In this document: positions 28,340 to 55,139 of the stretch, in pieces
How positions within the stretch are numbered: the stretch's first letter is position 1
Layout: every line of letters starts with the position of its first letter
The notes under the pieces: generated by a model
Seen by the model: only the letters and a program-made list of their open reading frames with translations
Database searches by the model: none
Told to the model about the DNA's origin: nothing
Assembly (NCBI GenBank): GCA_028712565.1
Contig: JAQTPW010000005.1
Location: 1-59,884, forward strand
Direction of reading: 5' to 3'
From: Minisyncoccota bacterium
Lineage (GTDB): Bacteria; Patescibacteriota; Minisyncoccia; Minisyncoccales; JAQTPW01
Length of the DNA: 59,884 nt
Translations under genes and position numbers: made by a program

Positions 28340-28351
28340 AATTTAAGGTTT

Positions 28352-29674: not shown

Positions 29675-29710
29675 AAAGCCGGCCCCAATGGGGGCCGGCT
29701 TTTATTTTTA
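29675..29710 (+). terminator. intrinsic terminator
   Basis: GCCGGCCCC (29678-29686) pairs with GGGGCCGGC (29691-29699) and is followed by a T-rich run. Confidence 0.9.
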
Positions 29711-31790: not shown

Positions 31791-32033
31791 TCCCAAATTA
31801 ATCCAAACGAAATTTATACAACCAAAGAAACTCAGGATTTTTTGAAAGTAAGTTCCTCAACTATCAAAAGAATGCTAAAGCGCGGGATAATTAAGGCTTA
31901 TAAAGTTGGCGGGACTTACCGGATTTGGGGCAGCGATATTTTAATTTTGATTTCTCCAAAAATAGAATCTCGGGTTTATAAAATTTACGATAAATTAAGA
32001 TCTAAAACAAAAAAAACTATTGAAAAATGGTAG
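31788..32033 (+). CDS. excisionase-family (MerR-like) helix-turn-helix DNA-binding protein
   Basis: YTTKETQDFLKVSSSTIKRMLKRGIIKAYKVGGTYRI matches the HTH_17/excisionase pattern. Confidence 0.7.
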   Translation: MSQINPNEIYTTKETQDFLKVSSSTIKRMLKRGIIKAYKVGGTYRIWGSDILILISPKIESRVYKIYDKLRSKTKKTIEKW

Positions 32034-32755: not shown

Positions 32756-32764
32756 TTATTTAAT

Positions 32765-34584: not shown

Positions 34585-34605
34585 AAAAAATTTAAAAGCA
34601 AATCA

Positions 34606-35550: not shown

Positions 35551-35554
35551 AAAT

Positions 35555-37590: not shown

Positions 37591-38782
37591 AAAAAGAGGA
37601 ACGGTTTTTGTGGTTTTTGCCATGGACACAGAAGGGCCGGTAACTGATAAAAAAAACAAAAACCTATTGGGAAGCTGGGGAAAAGTGGATTTTGCAATGG
37701 GAAAACTCTTTGATAGAAAATTTCGCAATCAATATAAAGATAGTTTTGGGGGAGCATTTAAAATCAGCTGGTTTTTTTTGAACTGGACAGGATTTAAAAC
37801 AAATCCTGTAAAACGGGATTTTGGATATCATAAAATCCAGGATCATTATATTAAAAAATGGGGAGATAAAATAAGACAATATGGAGACGGAATATATTGG
37901 CATTATCATCATCCTTCTAAAAACGGCGTTGGGAATGAATGGAATATTGATTGGTTTTCAAATAACGAATATTTTAACATTTTGAACAGAATGGTAATTG
38001 ACAGAAAATATTTTCCGTCTGTTTTCCGGGCAGGCGGAACAATTGAAAATAATGATAGTTCGTTATGGCTTGAACAATGGATTCCTTTTGATTATTCGAG
38101 CAGGGCAAGTAAAAATATAAATTGGCAAAAAAAAGAGGCAGACGGCAGATTGTTAAAAGAGGTTTGCGATTGGACAGAAGCTCCGAGAAAATGGGGGTTT
38201 TATAATCCAAGCTCTAAGAATTATCAAAAAGAAGGATGTCTTAAAAGAAAGATATTTAGGTGCTTGGATTTTAATTCTTCCGTTCATTCAATCCAAGATT
38301 CGGAGATAGGGGAAGCTTTTTTGGAGGCAGAAAAAGGAAAAGATGTTGTTTTGGCTTTTTTTGACCATGATTTTCGGGACATTGCAAAAAATATAGCTTT
38401 TTTATTTTTCCCAAAACTAAAAAAAATAGCCAGTATGCATCCTAAAATAAAATTTAAATACGAGAATGCCAAAAATGCGGCAACATCAATTATCAATGAG
38501 AACAAAAAAGAAAAAATAAATTTTAAAGTAAAAATTTTAAATTTAAAATTAATAATTAGCTCCAATTCAGAAATATTCGGAAGCCAACCATATTTGGCTA
38601 TAAAATTTGGCGAGAATAATTATAAGCATTATTCCTTGGATGTTATTGGAAAAAATATCTGGCAGCATGCCTTGGAATATCCCAAAAAGAAAATTATTTT
38701 TGGAATTGCCGCGAATAATAATTTAGGAGAAAATAAAGTTTTATTATATAAATATGAAAATTCTAGGATTAATCCCCGCTAG
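37541..38782 (+). CDS. hypothetical protein (no family recognised)
   Basis: Long ORF in operon context. The start is uncertain because it overlaps the upstream gene by 50 nt. Confidence 0.5.
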   Translation: MSKSAINSAKLSKGESEKRGTVFVVFAMDTEGPVTDKKNKNLLGSWGKVDFAMGKLFDRKFRNQYKDSFGGAFKISWFFLNWTGFKTNPVKRDFGYHKIQDHYIKKWGDKIRQYGDGIYWHYHHPSKNGVGNEWNIDWFSNNEYFNILNRMVIDRKYFPSVFRAGGTIENNDSSLWLEQWIPFDYSSRASKNINWQKKEADGRLLKEVCDWTEAPRKWGFYNPSSKNYQKEGCLKRKIFRCLDFNSSVHSIQDSEIGEAFLEAEKGKDVVLAFFDHDFRDIAKNIAFLFFPKLKKIASMHPKIKFKYENAKNAATSIINENKKEKINFKVKILNLKLIISSNSEIFGSQPYLAIKFGENNYKHYSLDVIGKNIWQHALEYPKKKIIFGIAANNNLGENKVLLYKYENSRINPR

Positions 38783-39482
38783 AGGGGGATCAAAAGGAAT
38801 ACCGAAAAAGAATATTTATCCGCTTTGCGGAAAGCCCATGATAGGGTACGTGATAGAAAAAGCGCTCAAATCCAAATATATTAATAGGTTGGTTGTTTCT
38901 ACTGACGATACAGAAATTTCTAGGATTTCAAAGAAATTTGGAGCAGAAGTCCCTTTTATGAGGCTCAAAAATTTGGCGCAAGATAGTTCCCCGACCGTGC
39001 CAGTAGTAAAACATGCTTTAGATTGGCTAAAAAAAAATGAAAATTATTTTCCCGACATTATCGTTTTGCTTCAAGCCAATTCTCCTTTAATGAAAACAGA
39101 AGATATAGATAAGGTCGTGGAAAAGCAAATAAAAACAAAAGCCGATGTTGCTTATACTTTAATGGAAATTTCCCATCCTTCCCAATGGCTGCAGAAACTG
39201 AGAAAAGATGAGCCGTATTTTATTTTTCCAGAAAAAAATATAGAAAGCTTTAAAAACCGGCAGTCAATAAAAGAAAAGACTTACCGTTCAACGGGAGTAA
39301 TATCTGCAATAAAAACAGAATATTTTCTTAAAAATTATAATAAAAATCCCCGGCTCTGCCTTCCTAAAAAAGGCCAGAAAACAAAAGCTATTGTTTTGGA
39401 TCCTGTTTCTTCTGTTGATATAGATAATTTTTTGGACTTATATTTTACTGAGACCTTAATTAAAAAGTATAATTTAAAATAA
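38754..39482 (+). CDS. acylneuraminate cytidylyltransferase family (CMP-nonulosonate synthetase, NeuA/LegF-like)
   Basis: MKILGLIPARGGSKGIPKKNI and LVVSTDD motifs. Confidence 0.85.
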   Translation: MKILGLIPARGGSKGIPKKNIYPLCGKPMIGYVIEKALKSKYINRLVVSTDDTEISRISKKFGAEVPFMRLKNLAQDSSPTVPVVKHALDWLKKNENYFPDIIVLLQANSPLMKTEDIDKVVEKQIKTKADVAYTLMEISHPSQWLQKLRKDEPYFIFPEKNIESFKNRQSIKEKTYRSTGVISAIKTEYFLKNYNKNPRLCLPKKGQKTKAIVLDPVSSVDIDNFLDLYFTETLIKKYNLK

Positions 39483-40787
39483 ATGGAAAAAGTTTTATTA
39501 ATCAATCCTTTGGTTACCGATAAAGAAAAATTTAGCAATACGGCTAAAGTTACTCCTCATCATCTGCCTCCTCAAGGGCTTTGTTTTTTGGCGGCGGTTT
39601 TACGGGAAAAAGGATATGCGGTTAAAATTATTGATGCCGAAGCTACTGGTGAAGGAGATGCAATTATTTTAAATATGGTTAGGGCGGAAAACCCGGATTA
39701 TATTGGAATTTCTGCAACTATTTTATCAATATTCCGGGCGGCAGAATACGTGAAGATGTTCCGAGAGAATTTTCCTGATAAAAAAATTATTTTAGGAGGT
39801 CCTCAAATTACAGCTTCTCCTGAAGAAACTATGAAAATTGTTCCGGGAATTGATGCCGGAATTTTAGGAGAAGGAGAAATAACCATCTTGGAATTATTAA
39901 ATGCTTTTAAAAATAAGGGAGATTTAAATTCAGTTAAAGGTTTGATTTTAAAAGAAGGGGATGTTTTAAAAAGAACTGCGCCTCGAGAATTTATTCAAAA
40001 CTTAGATGATCTGCCGCTTCCTGCCTGGGATTTATTGCCAAGTTTAACTCAATATTATAGTACTTCAGCAATTACTTATAAAAGGACTCCCGCCATTAAT
40101 TTGGTTACTTCACGGGGGTGTCCTAATCAATGCATATTTTGCGACAGATCAGTTTTTGGCAGAAAATGGAGGGCTTTTTCACCGAATAGAATTATTGAAA
40201 TGGTAAAGGTTTTAGTTAATAAATACGGCATAAAAGATATCTATTTTGACGATGACCATTTCTTAGTCAGCAAAGAAAGAGTTAAAGAATTTTGCAGATT
40301 ATTGAAAGAAGAAAAAATCGACCTTACTTGGTCGGCAGTTGGCAGGATAGATTCAGTAGATGAAGAACTTATTTCTATTATAAAATCGGTTGGCTGCCAT
40401 CAGTTGGAATTTGGGTTGGAATCCGGTTCCCAAAAAATACTAGATATCTTAAAGAAGAATGTCAAAGTAGAAAATGTTGAGAGAAATTTAAAAATGGTAA
40501 AAGCCGCAGGGTTAAGTATAAAAGGGCTTTTTATGGTAGGCAGCCCCGGGGAAACCGAAGAAACCTTAAAAGAAACAGAAGATTTTATAAAAAGAGTGGG
40601 CATCACCCGTCTTTCAGTAGCTTCCTTTACGCCCCTTCCTGGTTCTGAGGTTTATTCAAAAGCAAAGGAATACGGTTTATTTGATGATGATTGGAGAAAA
40701 ATGAATTTAAGAAATACGCTTTTTGTGCCGTGGGGAGTGACAAAAGAAATGCTAAGCAAATATATAGGAATATATGAGAGAAAATAA
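39483..40787 (+). CDS. cobalamin-binding-domain radical SAM enzyme (paralog 1)
   Basis: N-terminal B12-binding-like Rossmann region (IGISATI...ILGGPQIT) and a CPNQCIFC CxxxCxxC motif. Confidence 0.85.
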   Translation: MEKVLLINPLVTDKEKFSNTAKVTPHHLPPQGLCFLAAVLREKGYAVKIIDAEATGEGDAIILNMVRAENPDYIGISATILSIFRAAEYVKMFRENFPDKKIILGGPQITASPEETMKIVPGIDAGILGEGEITILELLNAFKNKGDLNSVKGLILKEGDVLKRTAPREFIQNLDDLPLPAWDLLPSLTQYYSTSAITYKRTPAINLVTSRGCPNQCIFCDRSVFGRKWRAFSPNRIIEMVKVLVNKYGIKDIYFDDDHFLVSKERVKEFCRLLKEEKIDLTWSAVGRIDSVDEELISIIKSVGCHQLEFGLESGSQKILDILKKNVKVENVERNLKMVKAAGLSIKGLFMVGSPGETEETLKETEDFIKRVGITRLSVASFTPLPGSEVYSKAKEYGLFDDDWRKMNLRNTLFVPWGVTKEMLSKYIGIYERK

Positions 40788-40789
40788 AA

Positions 40790-41890
40790 ATGAAAATAAA
40801 AATAGGAAAAAATTTAATAGGTAAAAATGAGCCATGCTTTATAATAGCTGAAGCTGGAGTTAATCACAACGGCGATTTAAAGCTTGCTAAAAAATTAATT
40901 GATAAAGCCAGAGAAGCCGGAGTTGATGCTGTAAAATTCCAGACATTTAAAGCAGAAAAAATTGTAACCCTTAATGCCAAACAAGCAAAATACCAGACAA
41001 AGAACACCGATAAAAAAGAATCGCAGTACGAAATGTTAAAAAGATTGGAATTATCCTATCCTGATTTTGAGGAATTAAAAAGGTATTGCAAAAGAAAGAA
41101 AATAATCTTTCTTTCCACAGCCCATTCCTGCAAAGAAGATGTAGATTTAGTCGCAAGATTATGCCCGGCAATTAAAATAGCTTCCGGAGATCTGACTAAT
41201 TTGCCATTCTTGGAATATGCCGCCAAAAAAGATCTGCCGATTATTTTATCCACTGGCATGGGAAATTTGGAAGAAGTGAAAGAAGCAGTAAAAACAATTT
41301 TGCCTGTTAATGAAAAACTTATTTTGTTGCACTGCACAACCAATTATCCGACACCTTTTAATGAAGTTAATTTACTGGCAATGAAAACCATGGAAAAAGA
41401 ATTTTCTTTGCCAGTCGGATATTCAGACCATACAGAAGGAATAAAAATTTCTTTGGCAGCCGCGGCTTTGGGAGCTTGTATTATTGAAAAACATTTTACT
41501 TTAGATAAAAAATTACCCGGCCCTGACCATAAAGCATCTTTGGAGCCGGAAGAATTAAAAGAAATGGTTTTGGGAATAAGGAAAATTGAGAAAAGATTAA
41601 AAAACGGAGAAAAATCAAGTGATTTAATAAAGGAGCTTAAAGTTGAAGAATCTTTAGGAAATGGCGTCAAAAAACCGACTAAAAGCGAATTAGAAGTGGC
41701 AAAAGTTGCCAGAAAAAGCATTGTGTCGGCGCAAAATATAAAAAAAGGCAAAATAATAGAAGAAAAAATGCTGGCAATTAAACGACCGGGAACGGGGTTG
41801 GAACCTAAATTTATTGATAAATTAATTGGGAAGAAAGCTAAATTTGATATTAAAAAAGATAAATTAATTAAATTTGGAGATTTATCATAA
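40790..41890 (+). CDS. N-acetylneuraminate synthase family (NeuB/LegI-like) with C-terminal SAF domain
   Basis: EPCFIIAEAGVNHNGDLKLAKKLIDKAREAGVDAVKFQTF and a PGPDHKASLEP motif. Confidence 0.9.
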   Translation: MKIKIGKNLIGKNEPCFIIAEAGVNHNGDLKLAKKLIDKAREAGVDAVKFQTFKAEKIVTLNAKQAKYQTKNTDKKESQYEMLKRLELSYPDFEELKRYCKRKKIIFLSTAHSCKEDVDLVARLCPAIKIASGDLTNLPFLEYAAKKDLPIILSTGMGNLEEVKEAVKTILPVNEKLILLHCTTNYPTPFNEVNLLAMKTMEKEFSLPVGYSDHTEGIKISLAAAALGACIIEKHFTLDKKLPGPDHKASLEPEELKEMVLGIRKIEKRLKNGEKSSDLIKELKVEESLGNGVKKPTKSELEVAKVARKSIVSAQNIKKGKIIEEKMLAIKRPGTGLEPKFIDKLIGKKAKFDIKKDKLIKFGDLS

Positions 41891-43032
41891 TGAGAAAAAT
41901 TTTGTACATATCTGGAACAAGAGCAGATTACGGATTAATGCGAGAAACATTGTTTCAGATTAAAAAAAACCCAAAACTGAAAATTGAAATAGCCGCAACT
42001 GGCATGCATTTAATGCCAGAATTTGGATTGACGATCGACGAAATAAAAAAAGATGGTTTTAAAATTCATAAAGTAAATGCAATTTATAAAAAAGACGATA
42101 AGGAATCAATGGCTTCTTTTATTGGAGAATTGATCCAATTATTGACAAAAGAAATTAAAAAAATAAAGCCGGATATTGTTTTATTATTAGGAGACAGGGG
42201 AGAAATGTTATCTGGAGCCATTGCGGGTTCTTATTTAACAATACCGGTTGCGCATATTGGAGGAGGAGATATAAGCGGAACTATTGATGAGCTGGCCCGT
42301 CACGCGATAACTAAATTATCCCATATTCATTTTCCCGTAACTGAAAATTCAGCAAAAAGGATTCAAAAAATGGGAGAAGAGTCCTGGAGAATATTTAAGG
42401 TTTCAGCTCCCGGATTGGACGATATTTTAAATGAAAAATTATTTTCTGAAAAAGAAATTTCAAAAAAATATAAATTGAATCTTTCAAAGCCAATTTTATT
42501 AGTTGTTCAGCATGCTGTAACTACTGAAATTAATGAGGCCGCAAAACAAATTAAAGAAACCTTGGAAGCAATTAGAGAATTGGGATTTCAAACAATTTTA
42601 ATCTATCCCAACGCTGATGCGGGAGGAAGAGAAATGATAAAAGTTATTAACGAATACAAAAAATACCCATTTATTAAAATTTATAAAAGTATTCCCCGGA
42701 AAGATTATCTCAGTTTGATGAAAATTTCCTCTGTTTTAATAGGAAATTCTAGTTCTGGAGTGATTGAGGCTCCTTCATTTCATTTGCCCATGGTAAATAT
42801 TGGAAAAAGAGAAATAGGCAGGGAAAGGACAAGAAATGTAATTGATACAAATTATAATAAAGAAGAAATAAAAAAAGCCATCGAGAGAGCCATCCACGAT
42901 AAAAAATTTAAAGAATCATTAAAAAAAATAAAAAATCCTTATGGCAATGGAAATGGCGGGAAAAAAATTGCTGATATTTTAGCTAAAATAAAAATTGATA
43001 AAAAATTATTAGAAAAGAAAATAATTTATTAA
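41890..43032 (+). CDS. hydrolysing UDP-N-acetylglucosamine 2-epimerase family (NeuC/LegG-like)
   Basis: ILYISGTRADYGLM, LLGDRGEML and HIGGGD motifs. Confidence 0.88.
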   Translation: MRKILYISGTRADYGLMRETLFQIKKNPKLKIEIAATGMHLMPEFGLTIDEIKKDGFKIHKVNAIYKKDDKESMASFIGELIQLLTKEIKKIKPDIVLLLGDRGEMLSGAIAGSYLTIPVAHIGGGDISGTIDELARHAITKLSHIHFPVTENSAKRIQKMGEESWRIFKVSAPGLDDILNEKLFSEKEISKKYKLNLSKPILLVVQHAVTTEINEAAKQIKETLEAIRELGFQTILIYPNADAGGREMIKVINEYKKYPFIKIYKSIPRKDYLSLMKISSVLIGNSSSGVIEAPSFHLPMVNIGKREIGRERTRNVIDTNYNKEEIKKAIERAIHDKKFKESLKKIKNPYGNGNGGKKIADILAKIKIDKKLLEKKIIY

Positions 43033-43042
43033 AATTATTCTT

Positions 43043-43447
43043 ATGGAAAATCGATTTAAAAATTGGAAACATCCAAAAATTAAGGAAGGAAAGCTGACAA
43101 AATATTATTGGCTTGTCCAGAATAATAAAAATCTAAAGCTCGGCAAAAAAACTGATATTGGCGCATTTACCTATATTAATGCAAAAAATGGAGTGGAAAT
43201 TAAAGATAATGTCCAAATCGGCTCACACTGTTCAATTTATTCTATTTCAACAATAGATAATAAAGAAGGAAAAATTATTCTTGAGAAAAATTGCAAAATA
43301 GGTTCGCATTGCACAATTATGCCCGGCGTCATGGTTGGGGAAAATTCCGTTATCGGGGCTTTTAGCTTTATAAACAAGGACATTCCAGCTAATACTTTAG
43401 CTTATGGGATACCGGTGAAAATAATTAAAAAAATAAACGAAAAATAG
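43043..43447 (+). CDS. hexapeptide-repeat (LbH) acetyltransferase
   Basis: Repeated [LIV]G-x4 hexapeptides (IGSHCSI, IGSHCTI, VGENSVIGA). Confidence 0.8.
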   Translation: MENRFKNWKHPKIKEGKLTKYYWLVQNNKNLKLGKKTDIGAFTYINAKNGVEIKDNVQIGSHCSIYSISTIDNKEGKIILEKNCKIGSHCTIMPGVMVGENSVIGAFSFINKDIPANTLAYGIPVKIIKKINEK

Positions 43448-43461
43448 GTATTTTCATAAAT

Positions 43462-44925
43462 ATGGATAAAAAAATAGACTCTATAGTTTTAAAAGAAAAC
43501 AATAACGTAAAAGCGGCGATGGAGCGCATAGAAAAGAGCGGGGTACGAATAGTTTTAATAGTTGATGATGGCAGAAAGCTTCTTGGCGTAGTAACCGATG
43601 GGAATATTCGCAGGTCGCTTTTATCTGGGAAAAATTTTAATACTTCTTTGGGTGAAATTATGACAAAAAATCCCATTGTCGCAAAAGAACTTGATTCAGC
43701 CGCAGAATTATTGGAAACAATGAACAAAAGAGGCATTCAGGAAATTCCAATAGTTAATGATCAAGGGATATTGGTTGATATTGCTTTGTTATCGGATTTG
43801 AAAAATATTCCTCTTTCTAGCCCGGACATTACTAAAAAAGAAGTTGAATTGATAAACCAGGTTCTGTCCACGCCTTTTTTGAGCATAGGGCCAAAAATAA
43901 AAGAATTTGAAAAAAAGATTGCGAACTTTGTCGGAACAAAATATGCCATAGCGATAAACAGCGGGACTAGCGGGCTCCATCTTTGCGTCAGATCTTTAGA
44001 TATAAAAGACGGCGACGAAGTGATTACCACCCCTTTTAGTTTTATTGCTTCATCGAATTGCATACTTTTTGAAAGAGCAAAGCCGGTATTCGTTGATATA
44101 GATGAAAACACTTTATGTATAGATCCAAATAAAATAGAAGAAAAAATTACAAAAAAAACAAAAGCTATTCTGCCAGTCCATATATTTGGTCATTCTTGTG
44201 AAATGGAAAAGATAATGGAAATTGCAAAAAGATATAATTTGGCAGTTTTAGAAGATGCCTGCGAAGCTTTGGGGGGAGAATATAAAGGTAGAAAAGTTGG
44301 AACTTTTGGGAATGCAGCAGTTTTTGCTTTTTATCCAAACAAACAAATAACTACCGGTGAGGGCGGTGTTATTGTTACGGATGATGAAAGGATTGCAAAA
44401 TTATGCCAAAGTATGCGAAATCAAGGAAGAGATGAGGGTGATTCCTGGCTGTCCCATTCAAGGCTGGGATACAATTATCGGATGACTGAAATAAGCGCGG
44501 CTCTGGGAATAACTCAATTGAGCAGAATTGAAGAAATTTTAGAGAAAAGGCAGAAAGTTGCTGAAAACTACAATAAGAAATTAGAAAAAATAGATGGAGT
44601 AAAAATTCCCTATGTGAGTCCGGAGGTTAAAATAAGCTGGTTTGTTTATGTTATAAGATTAGATGGCAGATTTTCTTTGGAAGATAAAAATGCAATTTTG
44701 CAGAAATTGACGCAAAAGGGGATTAATTGTGGAAATTATTTTCCGTCCATTCACCTGGAACCCTTTTATGTTAAAATGTTTGGATATAAAAATGGGGACT
44801 TTCCAATTACGGAAAGGGTTTCAAATTCAACCATAGCACTGCCTTTCTATAACAATTTAACTGAAAAGCAGATTGACTATGTCTGCGATAATTTAAATTC
44901 AGCAATAAGAGAATTGAAAAAATAA
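43462..44925 (+). CDS. CBS-pair domain fused to a DegT/DnrJ/EryC1 aminotransferase (LegC-like)
   Basis: The first ~115 aa form a CBS pair (GVVTDGNIRR...IQEIPIVNDQGILVDIA). The rest is a PLP aminotransferase with the lysine retained (FYPNKQITTGEGG). Confidence 0.85.
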   Translation: MDKKIDSIVLKENNNVKAAMERIEKSGVRIVLIVDDGRKLLGVVTDGNIRRSLLSGKNFNTSLGEIMTKNPIVAKELDSAAELLETMNKRGIQEIPIVNDQGILVDIALLSDLKNIPLSSPDITKKEVELINQVLSTPFLSIGPKIKEFEKKIANFVGTKYAIAINSGTSGLHLCVRSLDIKDGDEVITTPFSFIASSNCILFERAKPVFVDIDENTLCIDPNKIEEKITKKTKAILPVHIFGHSCEMEKIMEIAKRYNLAVLEDACEALGGEYKGRKVGTFGNAAVFAFYPNKQITTGEGGVIVTDDERIAKLCQSMRNQGRDEGDSWLSHSRLGYNYRMTEISAALGITQLSRIEEILEKRQKVAENYNKKLEKIDGVKIPYVSPEVKISWFVYVIRLDGRFSLEDKNAILQKLTQKGINCGNYFPSIHLEPFYVKMFGYKNGDFPITERVSNSTIALPFYNNLTEKQIDYVCDNLNSAIRELKK

Positions 44926-46470: not shown

Positions 46471-46477
46471 TAAAAAA

Positions 46478-48151: not shown

Positions 48152-48173
48152 CAATAAACAATAATTAAAAACT

Positions 48174-49160
48174 ATGATTTTAAAAGACAAAACTATATTA
48201 ATAACAGGCGGCACAGGCTCTTTTGGCCAGAAATTTGCCGAAATTATATTAAAGGACCAGAACCCTAAGACTGTACGTATTTACGATCATGATGAGTTAT
48301 CCGAAGTTGAAATGGAGCGAAAATTTAACAATCCAAGATTGAGATTTTTTATCGGCGACGTTCGGGATAAAAGCCGGCTTTACCGGGCAATGAGCGGAGT
48401 TGATGTTTTGGTTCATGCTGCTGCCTTAAAACACGTACCCATTTGCGAATACAACCCGATAGAAGCAGTAAAAACAAATATTGAAGGAACCATAAATGTC
48501 ATTGATGCCGCCATTGATAATTCAGTGGAAAGGGCAATAGTAATTAGCACAGATAAGGCAGTGTATCCGGTTAACTTGTACGGCGCAACTAAAATGGTGG
48601 CTGAAAAACTTTTTATCCAGGCAAATTCTTATGTTGGCGGGCAAAGAAAAACTATATTTTCAGCGGCAAGATACGGAAACGTTCTGGGAAGCTCAGGAAG
48701 CGTAGTCCCTTTATTCGAAGAGCAGAAAAAAAATGGGGAAATTACCATTACTGACGAACGGATGACCAGGTTTTGGGTTACTTTGGAAGAGGGGATTCGT
48801 TTTGTCGCAAATTGCATTGAGATTATGAAAGGTGGGGAAGTATTTATTCCTAAAATTCCGAGCATGAAAATTATAGATTTGGCCGAAGTTATGGCGCCCA
48901 ATGCGCGCAAAAAAATTGTGGGCATTAGACCTGGAGAAAAATTGCACGAGATTCTTTTGACAGAAGAAGAGGCAAAACACGCCAAGGAATTTAATGAATA
49001 TTTCGTAATTGAGCCAGAGTTTCCTTTTTGGGACAATAACAATTTTAAAGAAGGAAAAAACCTTTTAGATGGCTTTGAATATACCAGCGATAAGAATACC
49101 AAATGGATTACAAAGGAAAAAATGCAGGAAATTTTAAAAAATCTAAAAATAGAAAAATGA
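48174..49160 (+). CDS. pseB: UDP-N-acetylglucosamine 4,6-dehydratase (PseB/FlaA1-like)
   Basis: ILITGGTGSFG, RFFIGDVRD, HAAALKHVP, STDKAVYPVNLYGATK. Confidence 0.88.
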   Translation: MILKDKTILITGGTGSFGQKFAEIILKDQNPKTVRIYDHDELSEVEMERKFNNPRLRFFIGDVRDKSRLYRAMSGVDVLVHAAALKHVPICEYNPIEAVKTNIEGTINVIDAAIDNSVERAIVISTDKAVYPVNLYGATKMVAEKLFIQANSYVGGQRKTIFSAARYGNVLGSSGSVVPLFEEQKKNGEITITDERMTRFWVTLEEGIRFVANCIEIMKGGEVFIPKIPSMKIIDLAEVMAPNARKKIVGIRPGEKLHEILLTEEEAKHAKEFNEYFVIEPEFPFWDNNNFKEGKNLLDGFEYTSDKNTKWITKEKMQEILKNLKIEK

Positions 49161-50305
49161 AAAAATTAATTCCTTACGGCCATCAATGGATAGACGAAAA
49201 AGACATAAAAGAAGTGGTGAAGATATTAAAAAGCGATTGGGTGACCCAAGGCCCTAAAATTGAAGAATTCGAGAATGCGATTGCGAAGTACTGCAAGGCA
49301 AAATATGCCGTAGCGGTTTCTTCAGGAACTGCGGCTTTGTACGCAGCTTATGCTGTGGCAGGGATTTTGCCTGGAAATGAAATTATTACCACTCCGTTAA
49401 CCTTTGCTGCAACCTCTTACGCCGCCCTTTTTTTCGGGGCAAAACCTGTTTTTGCAGATATTCAAGAGGATACTTTAAATATCGATCCCGTAGAAATAGA
49501 AAAGAAAATTACAAAAAAAACAAAAATAATATCTCCGGTTGATTTTGCCGGCCACCCCTGCGACTATGACCTGATCCAAAAAATAGCTAAAAAACACAAA
49601 CTTTTAGTAATCGAAGACGCCGCCCATGCTTTGGGCGCTAAATATAGAGGCAAAAAAATAGGCAGCTTTTCTGACATGACAATTTTAAGCTTCCATCCGG
49701 TAAAAACCATAACTACCGGTGAAGGGGGAATGATTTTAACAAACGATAAAAAACTTTACGAGAAATTAAAAATTTTCCGAAACCATGGGATAATAAAAAA
49801 TCCCAAAATTGGCGGCTGGTATTACGATATAAAAAATCCGGGCTTCAATTTGCGGCTTACTGATTTTCAAAGCGCTCTAGGAATCAGCCAGTTAAAGAAA
49901 GTAGATAAATTTATAAAAAGGAGAAGGGAAATTGTAGCAAGATATAATAGCGCATTTAAAAACATAAAAGAAATTAAAATTCCGGTTGAAAGGGATTATG
50001 TGAAGTCTTCTTGGCATATTTATATTATCCGGCTCCAGTTGGATAAATTGAAGGCAAGCCGAAAAGAAATATTTGAATCAATGCAAAAAGAAGGTTTGGG
50101 GGTTCAGGTCCATTATGTATTATTGAATCTGCAACCTTTCTGTCAGGAGGGTTTTGGGATGTCTTATGGGGCTGGAGATTTTCCGGTAGCTGAAAAATAT
50201 TATTCAGAAGCAATTACAATACCACTATTTCCTAAGATGACGGATAAAGAAGTGGAATACGTTATTAAGACTGTAAAAAAGGTAATTAATCGTTACAAGA
50301 AATAA
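49157..50305 (+). CDS. pseC: UDP-4-amino-4,6-dideoxy-N-acetyl-beta-L-altrosamine transaminase (PseC-like)
   Basis: Trimmed to the ATG at 49157, which forms an ATGA overlap with the pseB stop. MKKLIPYGHQWIDEKDI and the SFHPVKTITTGEGG lysine motif. Confidence 0.85.
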   Translation: MKKLIPYGHQWIDEKDIKEVVKILKSDWVTQGPKIEEFENAIAKYCKAKYAVAVSSGTAALYAAYAVAGILPGNEIITTPLTFAATSYAALFFGAKPVFADIQEDTLNIDPVEIEKKITKKTKIISPVDFAGHPCDYDLIQKIAKKHKLLVIEDAAHALGAKYRGKKIGSFSDMTILSFHPVKTITTGEGGMILTNDKKLYEKLKIFRNHGIIKNPKIGGWYYDIKNPGFNLRLTDFQSALGISQLKKVDKFIKRRREIVARYNSAFKNIKEIKIPVERDYVKSSWHIYIIRLQLDKLKASRKEIFESMQKEGLGVQVHYVLLNLQPFCQEGFGMSYGAGDFPVAEKYYSEAITIPLFPKMTDKEVEYVIKTVKKVINRYKK

Positions 50306-50307
50306 AT

Positions 50308-50904
50308 ATGAAAAAAACAAAACAAATTAAAATTTGGGAAAATAAATTTGGCAGAGATTATACAGACCGCAACGTTGTTGACCCAAAAACTCGGATTAAA
50401 ATGTTTAAAAAAATGATAGGGAATTTGGATATTAAAACGATTCTTGAAGTGGGCTGCAATAAAGGCCATAATTTGGCGGCCTTATCAAAAATTGGCAAAT
50501 ATCAATTAATCGGAATGGAGCCGTCCGAATATGCTATTGTAAAAGGAAAAGAGGTAAGCCAATTCCCAATAATAAGAGGAAATTGCTTTGGAATTCCGTT
50601 TATTGATTCCTATTTTGATTTAGTTTTTACTTGCGGAGTTTTAATCCATATCGAAGTCCAGGATTTGCCAAAAGCCATAAATGAAATTTACCGAGTAAGC
50701 AAAAAATATATTTTAGCAATTGAATATTTTTCTCCAGAAAATACAACTATTCATTACCGGGGGCATAATGACCTGCTTTGGAAAAGGGATTTTAAAAAAT
50801 ATTTTTTAAAGCAAAAGCCAAATTTAAAATATTTAGGCGGCGGGCATTTGGAAAAAGAAGACGGATTCGATAATTGCAATTGGTGGCTATTTGAAAAAAG
50901 ATGA
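50308..50904 (+). CDS. pseudaminic-acid-biosynthesis-associated methylase-like class I methyltransferase
   Basis: WENKFGRDYTDRN at the N-terminus and an ILEVGCNKGHNL motif I. Confidence 0.7.
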   Translation: MKKTKQIKIWENKFGRDYTDRNVVDPKTRIKMFKKMIGNLDIKTILEVGCNKGHNLAALSKIGKYQLIGMEPSEYAIVKGKEVSQFPIIRGNCFGIPFIDSYFDLVFTCGVLIHIEVQDLPKAINEIYRVSKKYILAIEYFSPENTTIHYRGHNDLLWKRDFKKYFLKQKPNLKYLGGGHLEKEDGFDNCNWWLFEKR

Positions 50905-52307
50905 AAATACTAATTATTAATATTTCTTTAAGGCCAAACAGCGAAAAAATGATGTTTCCTATTGGGTTAGGATATATTTCAACTGCTATTGAAAAGGCAG
51001 GTTTTAACTTTGAAATTTTTGATTTGGATGCCCTTCGGCCATCGGATTTAGAAATTGAAGAATATATTAAAAAAACGGATTTTGACGTGGCAGCTTTTGG
51101 ATGCATAGTGACCGGTTACAAATACGTAAAAAAATTAGCAGAATTAATTAAAAAATATAAAAATGTGCCGATTATTGTAGGAAATTCGGTTGCCACTTCG
51201 ATTCCAGAATTATTATTAACAAAAACCAAAGTTGATATTGCAGTTATGGGAGAAGGAGATATAACAATCATCGAATTATTAAAAGCCATTGAAAATAAAA
51301 ATCCTTTGGATGATGTAAAGGGGATTGTTTTTCTAAAAGACAATAAAGTATTTTTTACTCCTGAAAGAGAGCTTATTTTGAATTTAGACGAGCTCCCCTT
51401 TATAAATTACGATCTGTTTGATATGGAAACTTATTTGGCGCACTGTAAATTTAACGTTGGCGAACCCTACCCAATGGAATTTGATCTATTAAAGGCATTG
51501 CCGATAAATACCGCTCGAGGCTGCCCAAATAATTGCACTTTTTGTTATCATGTTTTTAAAAGAAAAAGATATCGCATACGTTCAATAGAAAATATTGGTC
51601 GAGAAATAAAACATTTGAAAGAGAAATACGGATTAAATTATATTCAATTTTCCGACGAGCTTACGCTCTTTTCAAAAGAACAGGCTAATAAATTTGCAGA
51701 TTATTTTTTGAAAGAAAATCTTGGAGTCTTTTGGCAAGCAGATTGCCGAGCTGGTTTATTCGGAAATACCGATCTAGACCTTGCTTTAAAATTACAAAAA
51801 GCTGGTTGCGTTGAGTTAGGATATTCCTTAGAATCTGCCGATGAAGAAATTTTAAAGGCAATGGATAAAAAAATTACTGTTCAGGATTTTGTAATTCAAA
51901 CAAAAATTCTTCAGAAAGCGGGAATTTCTACTTCAACAAGCGTTGTGATTGGGTATCCGCAAGAAACAGAAGAAACCATAAAGAAAACATTGAATTGCTG
52001 TTTAGAAAACAATATTTATCCTAGCACGGGGTATTTGCTTCCTCAGCCCGGAACTCCGATGTATGATTATGCGAGAACTGAAGGAATAATAAAAGACGAA
52101 GAAGAATATTTATTAAAAATGGGAGACAGACAGGATTTCACGATTAATTTGACGAAAATGCCCCAGGAAAGAATGGAGGAGCTTGTAAAGGAATATTTAA
52201 AAAAAATTGCAGAAAAAATGGAATTAAACTTAAAGGAAGAAAGTCTTATTAAAACAGGTCATTACAGACAAAAAATATTTTTAGAAAATAAAAATGAAAA
52301 AAGTTAA
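50901..52307 (+). CDS. cobalamin-binding-domain radical SAM enzyme (paralog 2)
   Basis: A B12-binding-like N-terminus and a CPNNCTFC motif. It overlaps the upstream gene by 4 nt. Confidence 0.85.
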   Translation: MKILIINISLRPNSEKMMFPIGLGYISTAIEKAGFNFEIFDLDALRPSDLEIEEYIKKTDFDVAAFGCIVTGYKYVKKLAELIKKYKNVPIIVGNSVATSIPELLLTKTKVDIAVMGEGDITIIELLKAIENKNPLDDVKGIVFLKDNKVFFTPERELILNLDELPFINYDLFDMETYLAHCKFNVGEPYPMEFDLLKALPINTARGCPNNCTFCYHVFKRKRYRIRSIENIGREIKHLKEKYGLNYIQFSDELTLFSKEQANKFADYFLKENLGVFWQADCRAGLFGNTDLDLALKLQKAGCVELGYSLESADEEILKAMDKKITVQDFVIQTKILQKAGISTSTSVVIGYPQETEETIKKTLNCCLENNIYPSTGYLLPQPGTPMYDYARTEGIIKDEEEYLLKMGDRQDFTINLTKMPQERMEELVKEYLKKIAEKMELNLKEESLIKTGHYRQKIFLENKNEKS

Positions 52308-53406
52308 AATTAAAAATAAAGTTATTGGTAACGGTAGCCCATGCTTTGTTATTGCCGAAGCCGGCTCTAATCATGACGGAAAATTCGAACAGGCAAAAAA
52401 ATTAATAGATGTTGCCGCTTTTGCTGGAGCTGACGCGGTAAAATTTCAATTATTCCGAGCCGCAAAAATTTATCCTAAAACTTCAGGCAAAGTTGACACG
52501 CCTGCGGGAAAGATCGATTTATATAAATTTTTTGAACAAGTTGAGCTTCCTTCAAAATGGCTTTTCCCTTTAAAAAAGTATTCAGAGAAAAAGGGGCTAA
52601 TTTTTATTGTCTCTCCCTTTGACGAAGAAAGCGCGGATCTTCTTGAGAAAATTAAAGTAGAGGTTTATAAAATTGCTTCTCCCGAATTAAACCACATACC
52701 TTTGATCAGGCATATCGCCAAAAAGAAAAAACCCATGATTCTCGCCGAAGGATTGAGCACCTTGAGCGATATCGAGGAGGCCTTAAATACTGCCTATAAG
52801 GAAAATAATTTTCAGACAATACTTTTGCATTGCGTAAGCTCCTATCCGGCTCCGCCCGAAGATTATAATTTAAATGTAATTGAAACATTAAGACGGGTCT
52901 TCCAGGTCCTGGTAGGAATTTCTGACCATACTTTAGACCCCGTCCTTATTCCAAAACTAGGAGCGGCCTTGGGAATTTCTGCGATCGAGAAGCATTTTAC
53001 GATAAGCAGAAAATTAGAAGGACCAGATCATCCTTTTGCGATAGAGCCTGAAGAATTAAAATTAATGGTAAAAGAAATTAGAGAGACAGAAAAATGGAGC
53101 AATGAAAAGAAAAGTAAATTTCTTAAAAGCAAACCCCTTTACGAGAAAATTTTGGGAACTAGCCAGAAAGTTATTGCGCCTTCTGAAAAAGTACTTTATC
53201 CCGGTGACAAAAGAAGTATTTTTACAATAAAAGACGTAAAGAAAGGTGAAAAATTGGGAAAAAACAATATAGCAGTTTTGAGGGCAGAAAGATATCTAAA
53301 GCCCGGAATTCATCCCAGATATTTCAATTTAGTTTTGGGGAAAAAAGCTACGAAGCTAATCAAGAAGTTTTCAGGTTTGCAATGGGATAATTTACTGACA
53401 ATTTAA
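52294..53406 (+). CDS. NeuB-family nonulosonate synthase (PseI-like) with SAF domain
   Basis: SPCFVIAEAGSNHDGKFEQAKKLIDVAAFAGADAVKFQLF and a GPDHPFAIEP motif. Confidence 0.85.
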   Translation: MKKVKIKNKVIGNGSPCFVIAEAGSNHDGKFEQAKKLIDVAAFAGADAVKFQLFRAAKIYPKTSGKVDTPAGKIDLYKFFEQVELPSKWLFPLKKYSEKKGLIFIVSPFDEESADLLEKIKVEVYKIASPELNHIPLIRHIAKKKKPMILAEGLSTLSDIEEALNTAYKENNFQTILLHCVSSYPAPPEDYNLNVIETLRRVFQVLVGISDHTLDPVLIPKLGAALGISAIEKHFTISRKLEGPDHPFAIEPEELKLMVKEIRETEKWSNEKKSKFLKSKPLYEKILGTSQKVIAPSEKVLYPGDKRSIFTIKDVKKGEKLGKNNIAVLRAERYLKPGIHPRYFNLVLGKKATKLIKKFSGLQWDNLLTI

Positions 53407-53419
53407 TTTAAAAAATATT

Positions 53420-54157
53420 ATGAATATAGTTGCAATTATTCAGGCAAGAATGGGATCTACTCGTTTACCTCAGAAAGTTCTGCGTGCGATTGGCGGAAAA
53501 CCTATGTTGCAATGGGTTGTTGAAAGAGCAAAAAGGTCGCGGATGGTAAATGACGTAATTGTTGCTACTTCAGATAAGAAACAAGATGATTTAATTGAAA
53601 AATTGTGTAAAAAATTAAAAATTGGCTATTTCCGGGGTTCTGAAAACGATGTTTTAAATAGGTTTTATCAGGCAGCGAAAAAATATAAGGCAGATAAAGT
53701 GGTAAGAATCACCGGAGATTGTCCTTTTATAGAGCCCGAAATTATAGACGAGGTAATTAGAACACATCTTAAAAATAAAAACGATTATACGTCAAATGAC
53801 GCAGGTGTGGGATATCCCAGAGGCCTGGATGTTGAAGTTTTTAATTTCGGCTCTTTAGAAAAGGCAAATTTTAAAGCAAAAAAAATTTACGAAAGAGAGC
53901 ACGTTACCCCATATTTTTACGAGAATCCGAGAATTTTTAAAGTACAAATATTAAAAGCAAAGGGAATTTTAAAGAGGCCAAAATTCAGGCTCTGCGTAGA
54001 TAAAAAAGAAGATTTAAAATTAGTAAGGGAAATTTATAAAATTTTAAGTAAAAGGAAAAAAGGCATTAGTATATTCGATATAATTCATTTGTTGGATTCG
54101 GATAAAAAATTGGCCAGGGTCAATGAAAATATCAGGCAAAAGAAGCTGGGTGAATAA
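53420..54157 (+). CDS. SpsF/PseF-type cytidylyltransferase
   Basis: MNIVAIIQARMGSTRLPQKVL, VIVATSD and RITGDCPF motifs. Confidence 0.8.
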   Translation: MNIVAIIQARMGSTRLPQKVLRAIGGKPMLQWVVERAKRSRMVNDVIVATSDKKQDDLIEKLCKKLKIGYFRGSENDVLNRFYQAAKKYKADKVVRITGDCPFIEPEIIDEVIRTHLKNKNDYTSNDAGVGYPRGLDVEVFNFGSLEKANFKAKKIYEREHVTPYFYENPRIFKVQILKAKGILKRPKFRLCVDKKEDLKLVREIYKILSKRKKGISIFDIIHLLDSDKKLARVNENIRQKKLGE

Positions 54158-54158
54158 T

Positions 54159-55139
54159 ATGAAAAATAAGAAACTTAGAATTGTTTTCCGCGTTGACGGC
54201 AATAAAAAAATCGGCATGGGTCATGTAATGCGATGCCTTGCTTTGGCTGATGAGTTGAAAGAAAGAATTGGCTGCAAAATTTTTTTTGTGATGAAAAATT
54301 CCGCAGATTCCGAAAAAGAAGTTTTAAAATGCGGTTACGATATAACTGCTAATTTCCCAAAAAGTTTTTTGGATATAGCAATAGTCAGTGTTCCCGACAT
54401 TGGAAACAAATATTTATCAACAATAAAAAAACAGGTAAAATTACTTGTTGTTATCGATGATTCTGCAAAAACACAATATTGCGCCGATATTGTCGTAAAA
54501 TGCAGTTGCGTGCCGGAGCTATCAAGATTTGATAGAAAAGCAAAAGGGAAATTCTTAATAGGTTTGGATTATGTGATTTTGAATAAAGAATTTCAAATTA
54601 TTAACCTAAGAAAAAAAATAATAAATCCGAAGGCAAAATCTGTTTTGATAACCATGGGAGGAAGCGACATAAACAATCTTACTCCAAAAATAATGGAAGC
54701 TTTGAAAAAAATCTCTGATATCAAAAAAACTGTTGTAGTGGGGCCAGCTTTTAAAAACAAATTAAAGCCAAATAAGGAATATGATTCAAAATACGGAGTT
54801 TCAAATATGGCTTCCCTTATGTTTTCTTCGGATTTGGCAATTGTGGGCGGCGGGATAACTTTGTATGAAGTAGCTTGTGTCGGGACTCCGGGAATTGTCC
54901 TTTGCCAGACTGATTATCAAAAGATGGAAGCAGAATGTTTTGAAAAAGCAGGAGCTATTTTAAATTTGGGTTTTGGGAAGAATTTGGGTGAAGAAAAAAT
55001 CGCCGCAAGCGTTAAGGTCCTCCTAAAGGATAAAGAAATGCGGAAAAAAATGAGCAACATCGGAAAAAAAATAATTGACGGAAAAGGGGCAAAAAGAGTC
55101 GTTGATAAAATTTTAGATAAAATAAGAAAATATGAATAA
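54159..55139 (+). CDS. pseG: PseG-like UDP-sugar hydrolase (GT28-type fold)
   Basis: Trimmed to the ATG at 54159. RIVFRVDGNKKIGMGHVMRCLALADEL is typical of PseG/SpsG. Confidence 0.8.
   Translation: MKNKKLRIVFRVDGNKKIGMGHVMRCLALADELKERIGCKIFFVMKNSADSEKEVLKCGYDITANFPKSFLDIAIVSVPDIGNKYLSTIKKQVKLLVVIDDSAKTQYCADIVVKCSCVPELSRFDRKAKGKFLIGLDYVILNKEFQIINLRKKIINPKAKSVLITMGGSDINNLTPKIMEALKKISDIKKTVVVGPAFKNKLKPNKEYDSKYGVSNMASLMFSSDLAIVGGGITLYEVACVGTPGIVLCQTDYQKMEAECFEKAGAILNLGFGKNLGEEKIAASVKVLLKDKEMRKKMSNIGKKIIDGKGAKRVVDKILDKIRKYE

Follow-up and report, generated by a model that had tools for sequence, protein, structure and literature searches.

The 59,884-bp window analysed here, the whole of one contig (JAQTPW010000005.1, our contig C1) from a Minisyncoccota bacterium, carries a block of co-directional plus-strand genes in which two separate pathways leading to CMP-activated 5,7-diamino nonulosonic acids are probably encoded, together with machinery for a surface glycan. 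One gene set (set 1) resembles the legionaminic acid (Leg) pathway and the other (set 2) the pseudaminic acid (Pse) pathway. Two end products are expected because the synthases belong to different clades, the cytidylyltransferases are of different types, there are two aminotransferases, and the hydrolases are of the NeuC type in one set and of the PseG type in the other. Gene identities were assigned by calling open reading frames (ORFs) and scanning the window proteins with Pfam and NCBIfam profiles. All the genes that a preliminary description of this DNA had assigned to the two sets were recovered in place on the plus strand. Its entries were right, but the list omitted three B12-binding radical S-adenosylmethionine (SAM) genes, a Wzx flippase and a KpsS-like protein in or at the same span. 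Likewise, the co-directional unit of about 16 kb that it outlined does contain two pathways, but the block is longer and extends over 27.9 kb (32027-59884).

Set 1 and the probable legionaminic acid route

Set 1 begins with a CMP-nonulosonate synthetase of the NeuA/LegF type (38754-39482; CTP_transf_3, 98.8 bits), which scored 154 bits with the PseF model (cut-off 205.7). It is followed, after a radical SAM gene, by the synthase NeuB1 of the LegI/NeuB type (40790-41890; TIGR03569, 460.9 bits, cut-off 399.65) and by a NeuC/LegG-type hydrolysing NDP-sugar 2-epimerase (41890-43032; TIGR03568, 446 bits, cut-off 235.9). Among solved structures, NeuB1 scored 222 bits with SpsE, 183 with NmNeuB and 170 with PseI. 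The next gene encodes a left-handed beta-helix (LbH) acetyltransferase of 134 residues, a candidate LegH (43043-43447), which matched the Hexapep profile and reached 58 bits with the NeuD/PglB/VioB model (cut-off 160.8). Its nearest solved relatives are the LacA/Maa O-acetyltransferases (62 bits), followed by sugar N-acetyltransferases, and no full-length gene of the PglD/NeuD type was found in the genome. The set ends with a candidate LegC (43462-44925), in which two N-terminal CBS domains are fused to a DegT aminotransferase (424.6 bits). This enzyme retains the pyridoxal phosphate (PLP) lysine (K294) and scored 350 bits with the PseC model (cut-off 423.5) and 315 bits with the LegC model (cut-off 420).

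The order NeuC-LbH-CBS-DegT is conserved in other loci, for example in locus L210, where the same CBS-DegT fusion is found and the LbH enzyme is 77% identical to that of the window. CBS pairs are also frequent in other Leg-type loci, where they occur on PtmE-like-sized proteins of about 350-390 residues; in the window (43462-43800) and L210, by contrast, they form one protein with the aminotransferase. Halorubrum sp. PV6 makes 5-N-formyl-legionaminic acid by means of LegB, LegC and LegH together with homologs of NeuC, NeuB and NeuA (PMC6137143). These enzyme types are those of set 1, for which they provide, by analogy, an experimental precedent.

Set 2 and the probable pseudaminic acid route

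Set 2 starts with PseB, the inverting UDP-GlcNAc 4,6-dehydratase (48174-49160; TIGR03589, 483.6 bits, cut-off 407.75), whose catalytic triad is of the Tyr type (T126-x9-Y136-x3-K140). The aminotransferase PseC (49103-50305; TIGR03588, 475.5 bits, cut-off 423.5) retains its PLP lysine (K201); its real start may lie downstream of 49103, because the model match begins at residue 23. It is followed by a Pse-associated class I SAM methyltransferase (50308-50904; TIGR03587, 170.3 bits, cut-off 112), a second radical SAM gene and the SpsE-like synthase NeuB2 (52294-53406; NeuB Pfam profile, 257 bits), which remained below the cut-offs of TIGR03569 (294 bits) and TIGR03586 (279.3 bits, cut-off 340.25). 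Compared with solved structures, NeuB2 scored 308 bits with SpsE (1vli, E=9e-91), 171 with PseI of Campylobacter jejuni (8h2c) and 143 with NmNeuB. The cytidylyltransferase (53420-54157) is of the SpsF type (CTP_transf_3, 167.5 bits) and reached only 41.6 bits with the PseF model TIGR03584 (cut-off 205.7). Finally, a PseG-type UDP-sugar hydrolase (54123-55139) passed its model marginally (TIGR03590, 155.6 bits, cut-off 153.55). It has no fused GNAT domain, whereas the PseG homolog of locus L150 (521 residues) has one at its C terminus.

Thus, the earlier reading of this set as a Pse complement could be upheld for PseB, PseC, PseG and the methylase, all of which pass their cut-offs, but not for the synthase and the cytidylyltransferase, which are SpsE-like and SpsF-type. 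Set 2 appears to work like the Pse pathway without being a canonical member of it, since PseH is lacking and neither the PseI nor the PseF cut-off is reached. With a synthase and a cytidylyltransferase of the SpsE/SpsF type, Pse stereochemistry would therefore rest on PseB with its Tyr triad, PseC and PseG. Given the PseB, PseC and PseG neighbours of its clade, NeuB2 probably acts like PseI. In Clostridium, Pse clusters have also been described with sps-like PseC, PseF and PseG and with an unexplained conserved methyltransferase beside the cytidylyltransferase (PMC13317340).

Integrity of the enzymes and clades of the synthases

To assess integrity, homologs of each pathway enzyme were aligned and those columns noted in which at least 90% of the sequences agree. 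NeuB1 retained all 51 such positions, including H214 and H235. NeuB2 retained 49 of 51, both changes being conservative, with H212 and H234 present; the His pair and the Glu, Lys and Ser positions invariant across all three NeuB paralogs of the genome are kept in both synthases. The NeuC-type enzyme retained 29 of 31 positions, and NeuC, PseB, PseG and the SpsF-type enzyme each depart at one or two. The set 1 cytidylyltransferase departs at 4 of 22 positions, its homolog set being heterogeneous. No key enzyme was found to depart non-conservatively from homolog-conserved positions, and the inactivating substitutions that the preliminary description had considered as a possible objection were thus not observed. 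This suggests that the pathway enzymes are intact, and nothing hints at pseudogenes.

The phylogeny of NeuB homologs was built from 118 sequences, including those of 80 loci (with 10-kb flanks) from species-representative genomes, 29 from a sample of 401 genomes of the phylum and the genome's own three (IQ-TREE maximum likelihood, quick search, LG+G4). Sequences were labelled by their neighbours within 8 kb, using the window's own enzymes as BLAST probes. The context labels were strongly clustered on the tree (25 changes, compared with a mean of 54 after shuffling). As had been predicted, the two synthases of the window fell into different clades. That of NeuB1 (support 88) is dominated by NeuC/LbH/DegT contexts, and the nearest neighbours of NeuB1 have the same NeuC-LbH-CBS-DegT block, a Leg-type context. 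NeuB2 lies in a clade of nine (support 97), in which all eight other members have PseB/PseC/PseG/SpsF neighbours. The identity of the clades was anchored indirectly, by gene neighbourhood, NCBIfam cut-offs, bit scores to PDB structures and published pathways.

A strong NeuB match was found in 60 of the 401 sampled Patescibacteria genomes, of which 11 have two. Only this genome has three, the highest count, if the 3.2-kb contig C4 is taken as part of the metagenome-assembled genome (MAG), which agrees with the previous impression of a large investment in nonulosonates. The third homolog, NeuB3, is a 367-residue synthase on C4 (402-1971, minus strand) that scored below the NeuB and PseI cut-offs. 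It lies directly upstream of a KdsC/KDN-9-phosphatase-type gene, with a Wzz-like gene on the other side. The NeuB3 clade (support 96) lacks NeuC or PseG neighbours, and one further member also adjoins a gene of the KdsC/KDN-9-phosphatase type. These genes suggest a third, phosphatase-dependent nonulosonate route (Kdn- or Neu-9-P-type), provided that C4 belongs to the organism.

Dehydratases and the N-acylation step

The preliminary description had proposed that the single PseB-like dehydratase might also serve the Leg set. Such sharing is unnecessary, because another contig of the assembly, C30, encodes a PglF-type dehydratase of 613 residues (Polysacc_synt_2, 388.5 bits) with the Met-type triad of retaining enzymes (TDK...M...K). 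This gene adjoins those for a PglE-like aminotransferase, a PglC-like phosphoglycosyltransferase and a Wzy_C-family protein. Among the loci compared, all five long PglF-like genes in NeuC-type loci have Met at the triad position, and the dehydratases in PseG-type loci include 18 with Tyr and 5 with Met, the window locus being of the Tyr (PseB) subtype. The dehydratase of set 1 is thus most simply assigned, by its triad, to the PglF-type enzyme of C30 rather than to a shared PseB. The surrounding region of C30 (about 11000-19300; L012 5060-13232) encodes the PglC-like enzyme, a split transketolase (254 and 156 residues), the PglE-like and PglF-like enzymes and the 684-residue Wzy_C protein, and would represent a bacillosamine-type priming and transfer module.

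For route 2, the lack of PseH noted previously was borne out: the block contains no GNAT gene, and the best match to TIGR03585 in the genome, on C13, scored 24.9 bits (cut-off 93.1). Other loci with orthologs of the second radical SAM gene (rSAM2, see below) do have a GNAT domain, either fused to PseG (L150) or standalone (L143), so that its absence is specific to the window locus. For the same reason, rSAM2 was rejected as a substitute for PseH.

A WbqC-family gene lies two genes after PseG (56495-57184; PF08889, 269 bits). When the AlphaFold2 model of its product (pLDDT 93) was compared with known structures by an exhaustive aligner, the best match was BshC (4wbd; Z 13.8, 220 of 229 residues, rmsd 3.4), followed by class I lysyl-tRNA synthetase (Z 11.2), other class I aminoacyl-tRNA synthetase cores (about 8-9) and MshC (Z 7.0). 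Foldseek returned nothing below E 0.05 for this model, and a literature search on WbqC yielded nothing informative. BshC and MshC couple cysteine to a glucosamine derivative through its amine. On account of the BshC-like fold and this known activity, the idea that WbqC acts as an ATP-dependent amino-acid:amino-sugar ligase and could stand in for PseH is, in our view, a reasonable lead. If this is true, the product would be an N-aminoacyl rather than an N-acetyl nonulosonate. The LbH acetyltransferase, which had been suggested to be shared for this step, remains a candidate, but only one of two; either it or WbqC may carry out the N-acylation of route 2. The WbqC family recurs in other nonulosonate loci (for example, L017/L125, L088, L207 and L208), and as a whole, judging from the modelled fold, may consist of amino-acid:amino-sugar ligases.

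B12-binding radical SAM genes

The three radical SAM genes of the block each encode an N-terminal B12-binding domain and a radical SAM core (PF02310 and PF04055), the domain architecture of cobalamin-dependent (class B) radical SAM methyltransferases. They are rSAM1 (39483-40787), between the cytidylyltransferase and the synthase of set 1, rSAM2 (50901-52307) and rSAM3 (55132-56490), with the CxxxCxxC motifs CPNQCIFC, CPNNCTFC and CPASCRFC at residues 213, 208 and 219, respectively. They are mutually 25-30% identical, and none of them reached an NCBIfam equivalog cut-off. The nearest solved structure was AprD4 (6fd2) for both rSAM1 (100.6 bits) and rSAM3 (63.2 bits); for rSAM2 it was the radical SAM protein 9ccb (49.4 bits), just above AprD4 (46.9 bits). 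TokK and CysS scored lower than AprD4 where they were matched at all.

The second of these genes belongs to a tightly conserved family (56-84% identity) found in Patescibacteria, Bacillota, Verrucomicrobiota and many metagenomes. Nonulosonate core genes were present in 39 of the 42 metagenome loci of at least 8 kb that carry rSAM2 orthologs (47-74% identity), with a NeuB homolog in 32, and the context was nearly always of the Pse type. In addition, in 18 of 80 metagenome loci a Pse-methylase homolog is the neighbour of an rSAM2 ortholog, and a fusion of such a homolog with an rSAM2 relative (P0132) occurs once. Some database members are read in-frame with PseB (65% identical to that of the window), SpsF-type or Pse-methylase domains; these composite forms could be real fusions or could arise from read-through of directly adjacent genes. 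By sequence and context, rSAM2 thus appears to be a conserved family travelling with Pse-type clusters across phyla. Locus L210 repeats much of the window layout, with NeuB1, NeuC, LbH, CBS-DegT (66%), a homolog of the KpsS-like protein unk557 (47%), a radical SAM gene, a homolog of unk282 and an rSAM2 ortholog (67%). Two features of other Pse loci with rSAM2 orthologs are not found in the window: a formyltransferase and PIG-L deacetylase pair (L149, 15519-16917), and a recurrent ORF of about 382-402 residues with no Pfam match, between rSAM2 and the methylase (L150, L149, L143 and L189).

The other two genes have different distributions. Close relatives of rSAM3 (57-83% identity) are mostly from Patescibacteria; after these close relatives, identity does not exceed 44%. 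The closest share contigs of 45,082 bp and 25,277 bp with rSAM2 relatives, and the 45-kb sister contig also holds a NeuB2 relative, its NeuB2, rSAM2 and rSAM3 relatives being 81-83% identical to those of the window. The remaining gene, rSAM1, is rather isolated (41-47% identity to its nearest relatives in the representative library). Ten longer relatives are fused to a class I methyltransferase (four), a YdjC deacetylase (three), GT4, DegT or LPG_synthase_TM (one each), and there are also polyprotein relatives with between two and five radical SAM modules. Four of the proteins observed (P0361, P0366, P0397 and P0458; 2,000-2,300 residues) have four or five consecutive B12-radical SAM modules, 23-29% identical to rSAM1 or rSAM2; these could be genuine polyproteins or the result of faulty gene calling.

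Such a radical SAM gene was absent from all 20 other Patescibacteria nonulosonate loci examined, and hence these genes are not a phylum-wide feature of nonulosonate loci. This genome holds about a dozen B12-radical SAM paralogs (three on C1, three on C8, one on C15, two on C20, a partial one on C24 and two on C30), and its count of B12-binding domains at E<=1e-8 (10) was the highest of the 401 sampled genomes, followed by 9, 6 and 6, with zero in 329. The paralogs beyond the window, about nine, lie at C8:2588-7695 (three in tandem), C15:718-2187, C20:1712-6343, C24:1-765 and C30:2106-4915.

Related enzymes are known to modify sugars and nucleotide-linked substrates: GenK and GenD1 C-methylate gentamicin sugars, and Fom3 C-methylates CMP-linked hydroxyethylphosphonate. 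We know of no cobalamin-type radical SAM enzyme that acts on nonulosonates, and our literature search found no paper linking radical SAM enzymes with nonulosonic acids. For the window enzymes, C-methylation and AprD4-like deoxygenation are the leading options, deoxygenation being as open as C-methylation.

Transfer, export and candidate acceptors

Between the two sets lie a Wzx-type flippase of the MOP family (44926-46470; Polysacc_synt, 137.5 bits), with many hydrophobic segments, and unk557, a KpsS/LipB-like protein of 557 residues (46478-48151) and putative CMP-nonulosonate glycosyltransferase. The Capsule_synth profile (PF05159) matched unk557 at E=0.002 and 18.1 bits (cut-off 20); its ESM Atlas feature score was 0.97, and its structure had TM values of 0.90/0.85 to KpsS/LipB-family clusters. 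A His-Pro motif is known from bacterial sialyltransferases, and H385-P386 is invariant across seven sequences (unk557 and six homologs). The same motif is present in the Pse/Leg transferases of Tannerella forsythia, which are TagB-like enzymes of the GT-B fold (PMC5420450). Paralogs of unk557 were found on C20, between two radical SAM genes, and on C21, after a cytidylyltransferase paralog. Downstream of WbqC, unk462 (57200-58588) had no Pfam match; its ESM Atlas feature scores were 0.96-0.98, with TM values of 0.61-0.65 to GT-B clusters, and its structural neighbourhood includes TagB/Glyphos_transf, polysialyltransferase and epimerase folds. On the basis of this fold, it is a possible second nonulosonate transferase.

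Neither Maf nor STT3 was found in the genome, which encodes two proteins of the Wzy_C/PglL family (on C30 and C6). Together with Wzx and the PglC-like priming enzyme, this favours a lipid-linked glycan that would be flipped and then polymerised or moved en bloc. Three secreted proteins encoded upstream, at 19379-29656, contain 26-29% Ser+Thr. Since they are secreted and Ser/Thr-rich, and PglL/Wzy_C proteins are present without Maf or STT3, these adjacent proteins are plausible candidate acceptors of the glycan.

Extent of the block and genome setting

The assembly comprises 866,941 bp in 32 contigs and was rated 98.7% complete. The window also encodes surface proteins with DUF5667, LTD/PKD and PG_binding domains, and nearly all of its genes lie on one strand. 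This gene content, together with closest database relatives named Patescibacteria, Staskawiczbacteria and Pacebacteria, identifies the organism as a member of the candidate phyla radiation (CPR)/Patescibacteria. The co-directional block starts at about 32.0 kb, reaches the contig end and contains 27 genes (3.2% of the assembly). Strong terminator-like hairpins were observed only upstream of it, at 29675-29702 and 31473-31490, the latter being followed by a promoter-like site (31552-31579). Promoter and terminator scans within the block gave signals at chance level and were little informative. Given intergenic gaps of no more than 22 bp throughout and no strong internal terminators, it is a reasonable inference that the 27 genes form one transcription unit. 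The hairpin at 29675-29702, which follows the gene for a Ser/Thr-rich protein of 434 residues, is a perfect, GC-rich 12-bp hairpin with T-tracts on both strands and resembles a bidirectional terminator.

The head of the block (32027-37590) encodes a ManC-like nucleotidyltransferase, a short UDPG_MGDP_dh-like ORF, GDP-mannose 4,6-dehydratase (gmd; TIGR01472, 511 bits, cut-off 415), an Fcl-like reductase/epimerase (259 bits with the Fcl model), an RfbH/ColD-like PLP 3-dehydrase (366 bits with the RfbH model) and a class I methyltransferase, the Fcl and RfbH scores both being below cut-off. These genes look like a GDP-colitose-type 3,6-dideoxyhexose route. They are followed by a gene for a soluble protein of 413 residues (37541-38782) that had no Pfam or NCBIfam match even at E<=5 and has weak homologs (31-33%) in two other Leg-type loci. 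At the other end, unk282 (58594-59442; 282 residues) had no family match, and homologs of it (35-50%) occur in nonulosonate loci L115, L135 and L210. The last gene encodes a GalE-like short-chain dehydrogenase/reductase truncated by the contig end (59446-59883; galE model, 127 bits over 146 residues). No terminal overlap with any contig of the assembly could be identified at this end, and the assembly does not contain the rest of this gene. It should also be noted that many small, low-GC contigs look like pieces of a single large glycan island that was assembled poorly.

Proposed routes and alternative explanations

From the gene identities, scores, motifs, clades and neighbourhoods described above, we infer the order of the steps, the stereochemistry of the sugars, the tailoring chemistry and the acceptor. 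In route 1, the retaining PglF-like UDP-GlcNAc 4,6-dehydratase of C30 would produce a 4-keto sugar, which the CBS-DegT enzyme would aminate and the short LbH enzyme would probably N-acetylate. The NeuC-type enzyme would then hydrolyse and 2-epimerise this intermediate, followed by condensation with phosphoenolpyruvate (PEP) by NeuB1 and CMP activation by the NeuA-type enzyme. In route 2, PseB (inverting) and PseC would form UDP-4-amino-4,6-dideoxy-L-AltNAc. After N-acylation by WbqC or the LbH enzyme, PseG would release the hexose, the SpsE-like NeuB2 would condense it with PEP and the SpsF-type enzyme would add CMP. Each route would also have one or two radical SAM enzymes of the cobalamin type, which, together with the class I methyltransferase, may act on an intermediate or on the product. 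The candidate transferases unk557 and unk462 would move the CMP-sugars onto a lipid-linked glycan, which Wzx would flip and a Wzy_C/PglL-type enzyme (from C30 or C6) would polymerise or transfer to the surface, possibly onto the Ser/Thr-rich secreted proteins.

Several points weigh against this scheme. The cluster is truncated by the contig end. For route 1, the dehydratase is located on another contig of the MAG; the matches of the set 1 cytidylyltransferase, CBS-DegT and LbH enzymes are family-level and below curated cut-offs; and the short LbH enzyme could, by its nearest solved relatives, be an O-acetyltransferase. For route 2, no recognised N-acetyltransferase was found in the genome, NeuB2 and the SpsF-type enzyme score below the PseI and PseF cut-offs, and the only characterised close relative of NeuB2, SpsE of Bacillus subtilis, is tied to Leg rather than Pse (PMC7439481). 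In addition, the clades of the tree are labelled by gene neighbourhood rather than by characterised NeuB, LegI or PseI sequences, and AprD4, the closest solved structure to both rSAM1 and rSAM3, is not a methylase.

There are also other explanations. Set 1 might simply make N-acetylneuraminic acid (Neu5Ac), with NeuC, NeuB and NeuA acting on UDP-GlcNAc, the LbH enzyme serving as a NeuD/NeuO-like O-acetyltransferase and the CBS-DegT enzyme working on another sugar, such as a bacillosamine-type primer, so that the locus would specify Neu5Ac and Pse. The equivalog models passed by NeuB1 and NeuC (NeuB_NnaB and NeuC_NnaA) are indeed named for the sialic acid pathway, O-acetyltransferases are the nearest solved relatives of the LbH enzyme, and no dehydratase adjoins set 1. 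However, the NeuB1-NeuC-LbH-CBS-DegT arrangement recurs in other loci (L083, L099, L052, L079, L210 and L139), often with a dehydratase nearby, a Met-triad PglF-type dehydratase is present in the genome, and Halorubrum makes Leg with the same enzyme types; we thus regard Neu5Ac as a rather unlikely product. Set 2, for its part, could be a pathway of the B. subtilis Sps type (SpsE/SpsF/SpsG) leading to a Leg-configured or other non-Pse isomer, in which case the cell would have two Leg-family isomers. NeuB2 is much closer to SpsE than to C. jejuni PseI (308 vs 171 bits) and below the PseI cut-off, the cytidylyltransferase is of the SpsF type, and the sps genes are needed for Leg in B. subtilis (PMC7439481). 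What makes this quite unlikely in our opinion is the first part of the pathway: SpsM of B. subtilis is a Met-triad retaining dehydratase whose loss is complemented by PglF and not, or only partly, by PseB (PMC7439481), whereas the dehydratase of the window passes the PseB equivalog and has the Tyr triad, as is the prevailing type in PseG-type contexts (18 to 5), and PseC also passes its equivalog. Finally, the two sets might not be independent, and one heavily modified nonulosonate, or shared intermediates, could arise through PseB as the only dehydratase, which has a slow side activity as a C5 epimerase, and only one acetyltransferase. The block does contain only one short-chain dehydratase and one LbH enzyme, and neither PseH nor PglD was found in the genome; yet the duplicated synthases, cytidylyltransferases, aminotransferases and hydrolases of differing types argue for two products, and a separate suitable dehydratase is available on C30, which makes such a merger very improbable. 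Two separate routes, one Leg-type and one Pse-type, therefore remain the explanation that we favour.

A bolder proposal, which we put forward tentatively and consider doubtful as a whole, concerns the product of the Pse branch. This branch might make an undescribed derivative rather than Pse5Ac7Ac, if rSAM2 and the Pse-methylase alter the skeleton or the N-acyl group and if, where PseH would introduce an acetyl group, WbqC couples an amino acid to the 4-amino group. The rSAM2-family enzyme would alkylate or deoxygenate, perhaps on a CMP- or UDP-linked intermediate in the manner of Fom3. With about a dozen B12-radical SAM paralogs on its glycan contigs, this 867-kb organism of the B12-auxotroph type would then rely on scavenged cobalamin mainly for the diversification of its surface sugars. 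Mass spectrometry has revealed 'higher carbon variants' of nonulosonic acids (PMC8157484), and alkylation by rSAM2, if true, would be a possible source of them.

Implications

Nonulosonic acids are best known from pathogens and flagella, and our literature search found no paper on these sugars in CPR/Patescibacteria. The pairing of Leg and Pse pathways is already known, and here it is a variant of modest novelty in an unexpected host. The tailoring layer (the rSAM2 family, WbqC and the KpsS-like transferases) and the scale of the system in so small a genome are undescribed. Two full pathways, perhaps three, would take up no less than 3% of a genome that is among the smallest kinds in bacteria, which suggests that acidic surface glycans are central to the way CPR bacteria live as episymbionts, for instance by helping them to attach to hosts or to evade phages. 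To our knowledge, very few Leg/Pse transferases are known. The locus offers a compact example in which Pse-linked radical SAM families, a candidate replacement for PseH (WbqC) and candidate Leg/Pse transferases occur together.

Comparison with known systems

Leg and Pse pathways in one locus have been documented in C. butyricum and C. jejuni (PMC13317340). The flagellar glycosylation islands of C. jejuni NCTC 11168 and C. butyricum CDC_51208 resemble the window in having two nonulosonate pathways side by side. They differ in using Maf transferases on flagellins and a GNAT PseH, neither of which is present in the genome studied here, whereas the window adds three B12-radical SAM genes, a Wzx flippase and two candidate transferases, one KpsS-like and one of the GT-B fold, in an 867-kb CPR bacterium.

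With regard to the single pathways, set 1 shares the synthase, 2-epimerase and cytidylyltransferase with the NeuC-dependent Leg pathway of C. jejuni (LegB/C/H/G/I/F), Legionella pneumophila and Halorubrum sp. PV6 (HrrPV6_1046-1053), and has candidates for its aminotransferase and LbH acetyltransferase. In contrast to that pathway, its proposed dehydratase lies outside the cluster (on C30), a CBS pair is attached to the aminotransferase, the acetyltransferase has a short form (134 residues) and a radical SAM gene stands between the cytidylyltransferase and the synthase. Compared with the canonical Pse pathway of Helicobacter pylori and C. jejuni (PseB/C/H/G/I/F), PseB, PseC and PseG of the window reach the equivalog cut-offs and PseB has the Tyr triad, but set 2 has no PseH, its synthase and cytidylyltransferase are SpsE/SpsF-like, and it has an additional methylase, two B12-radical SAM genes and WbqC. 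The sps Leg pathway of B. subtilis (SpsM, SpsC, SpsD, SpsG, SpsE along with SpsF; PMC7439481) shares with set 2 the SpsE-like, SpsF-type and PseG/SpsG-type enzymes and UDP-linked intermediates; set 2 differs in that its first enzyme is a Tyr-triad PseB rather than the Met-triad SpsM, and in having no SpsD-type acetyltransferase.

Among solved structures, AprD4 is the closest counterpart of rSAM1 and rSAM3 and the second closest of rSAM2; this aminosugar diol dehydratase likewise combines a B12-binding N-terminal domain with a CxxxCxxC core in a sugar pathway, although the similarity of the window proteins to known enzymes of the AprD4-like kind is low (47-101 bits). For transfer and export, the protein O-glycosylation system of T. 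forsythia provides the best parallel: a TagB-like GT-B transferase that has an HP motif places the nonulosonate on a lipid-linked oligosaccharide, after which the glycan is exported and attached to abundant surface proteins of the S-layer (PMC5420450). T. forsythia belongs to a different phylum with a different envelope, and each strain uses one nonulosonate rather than two. At the level of genes only, the window and its genome contain corresponding elements in the GT-B protein unk462, the KpsS-like unk557 with its invariant HP motif, Wzx, the Wzy_C proteins and the Ser/Thr-rich secreted proteins.

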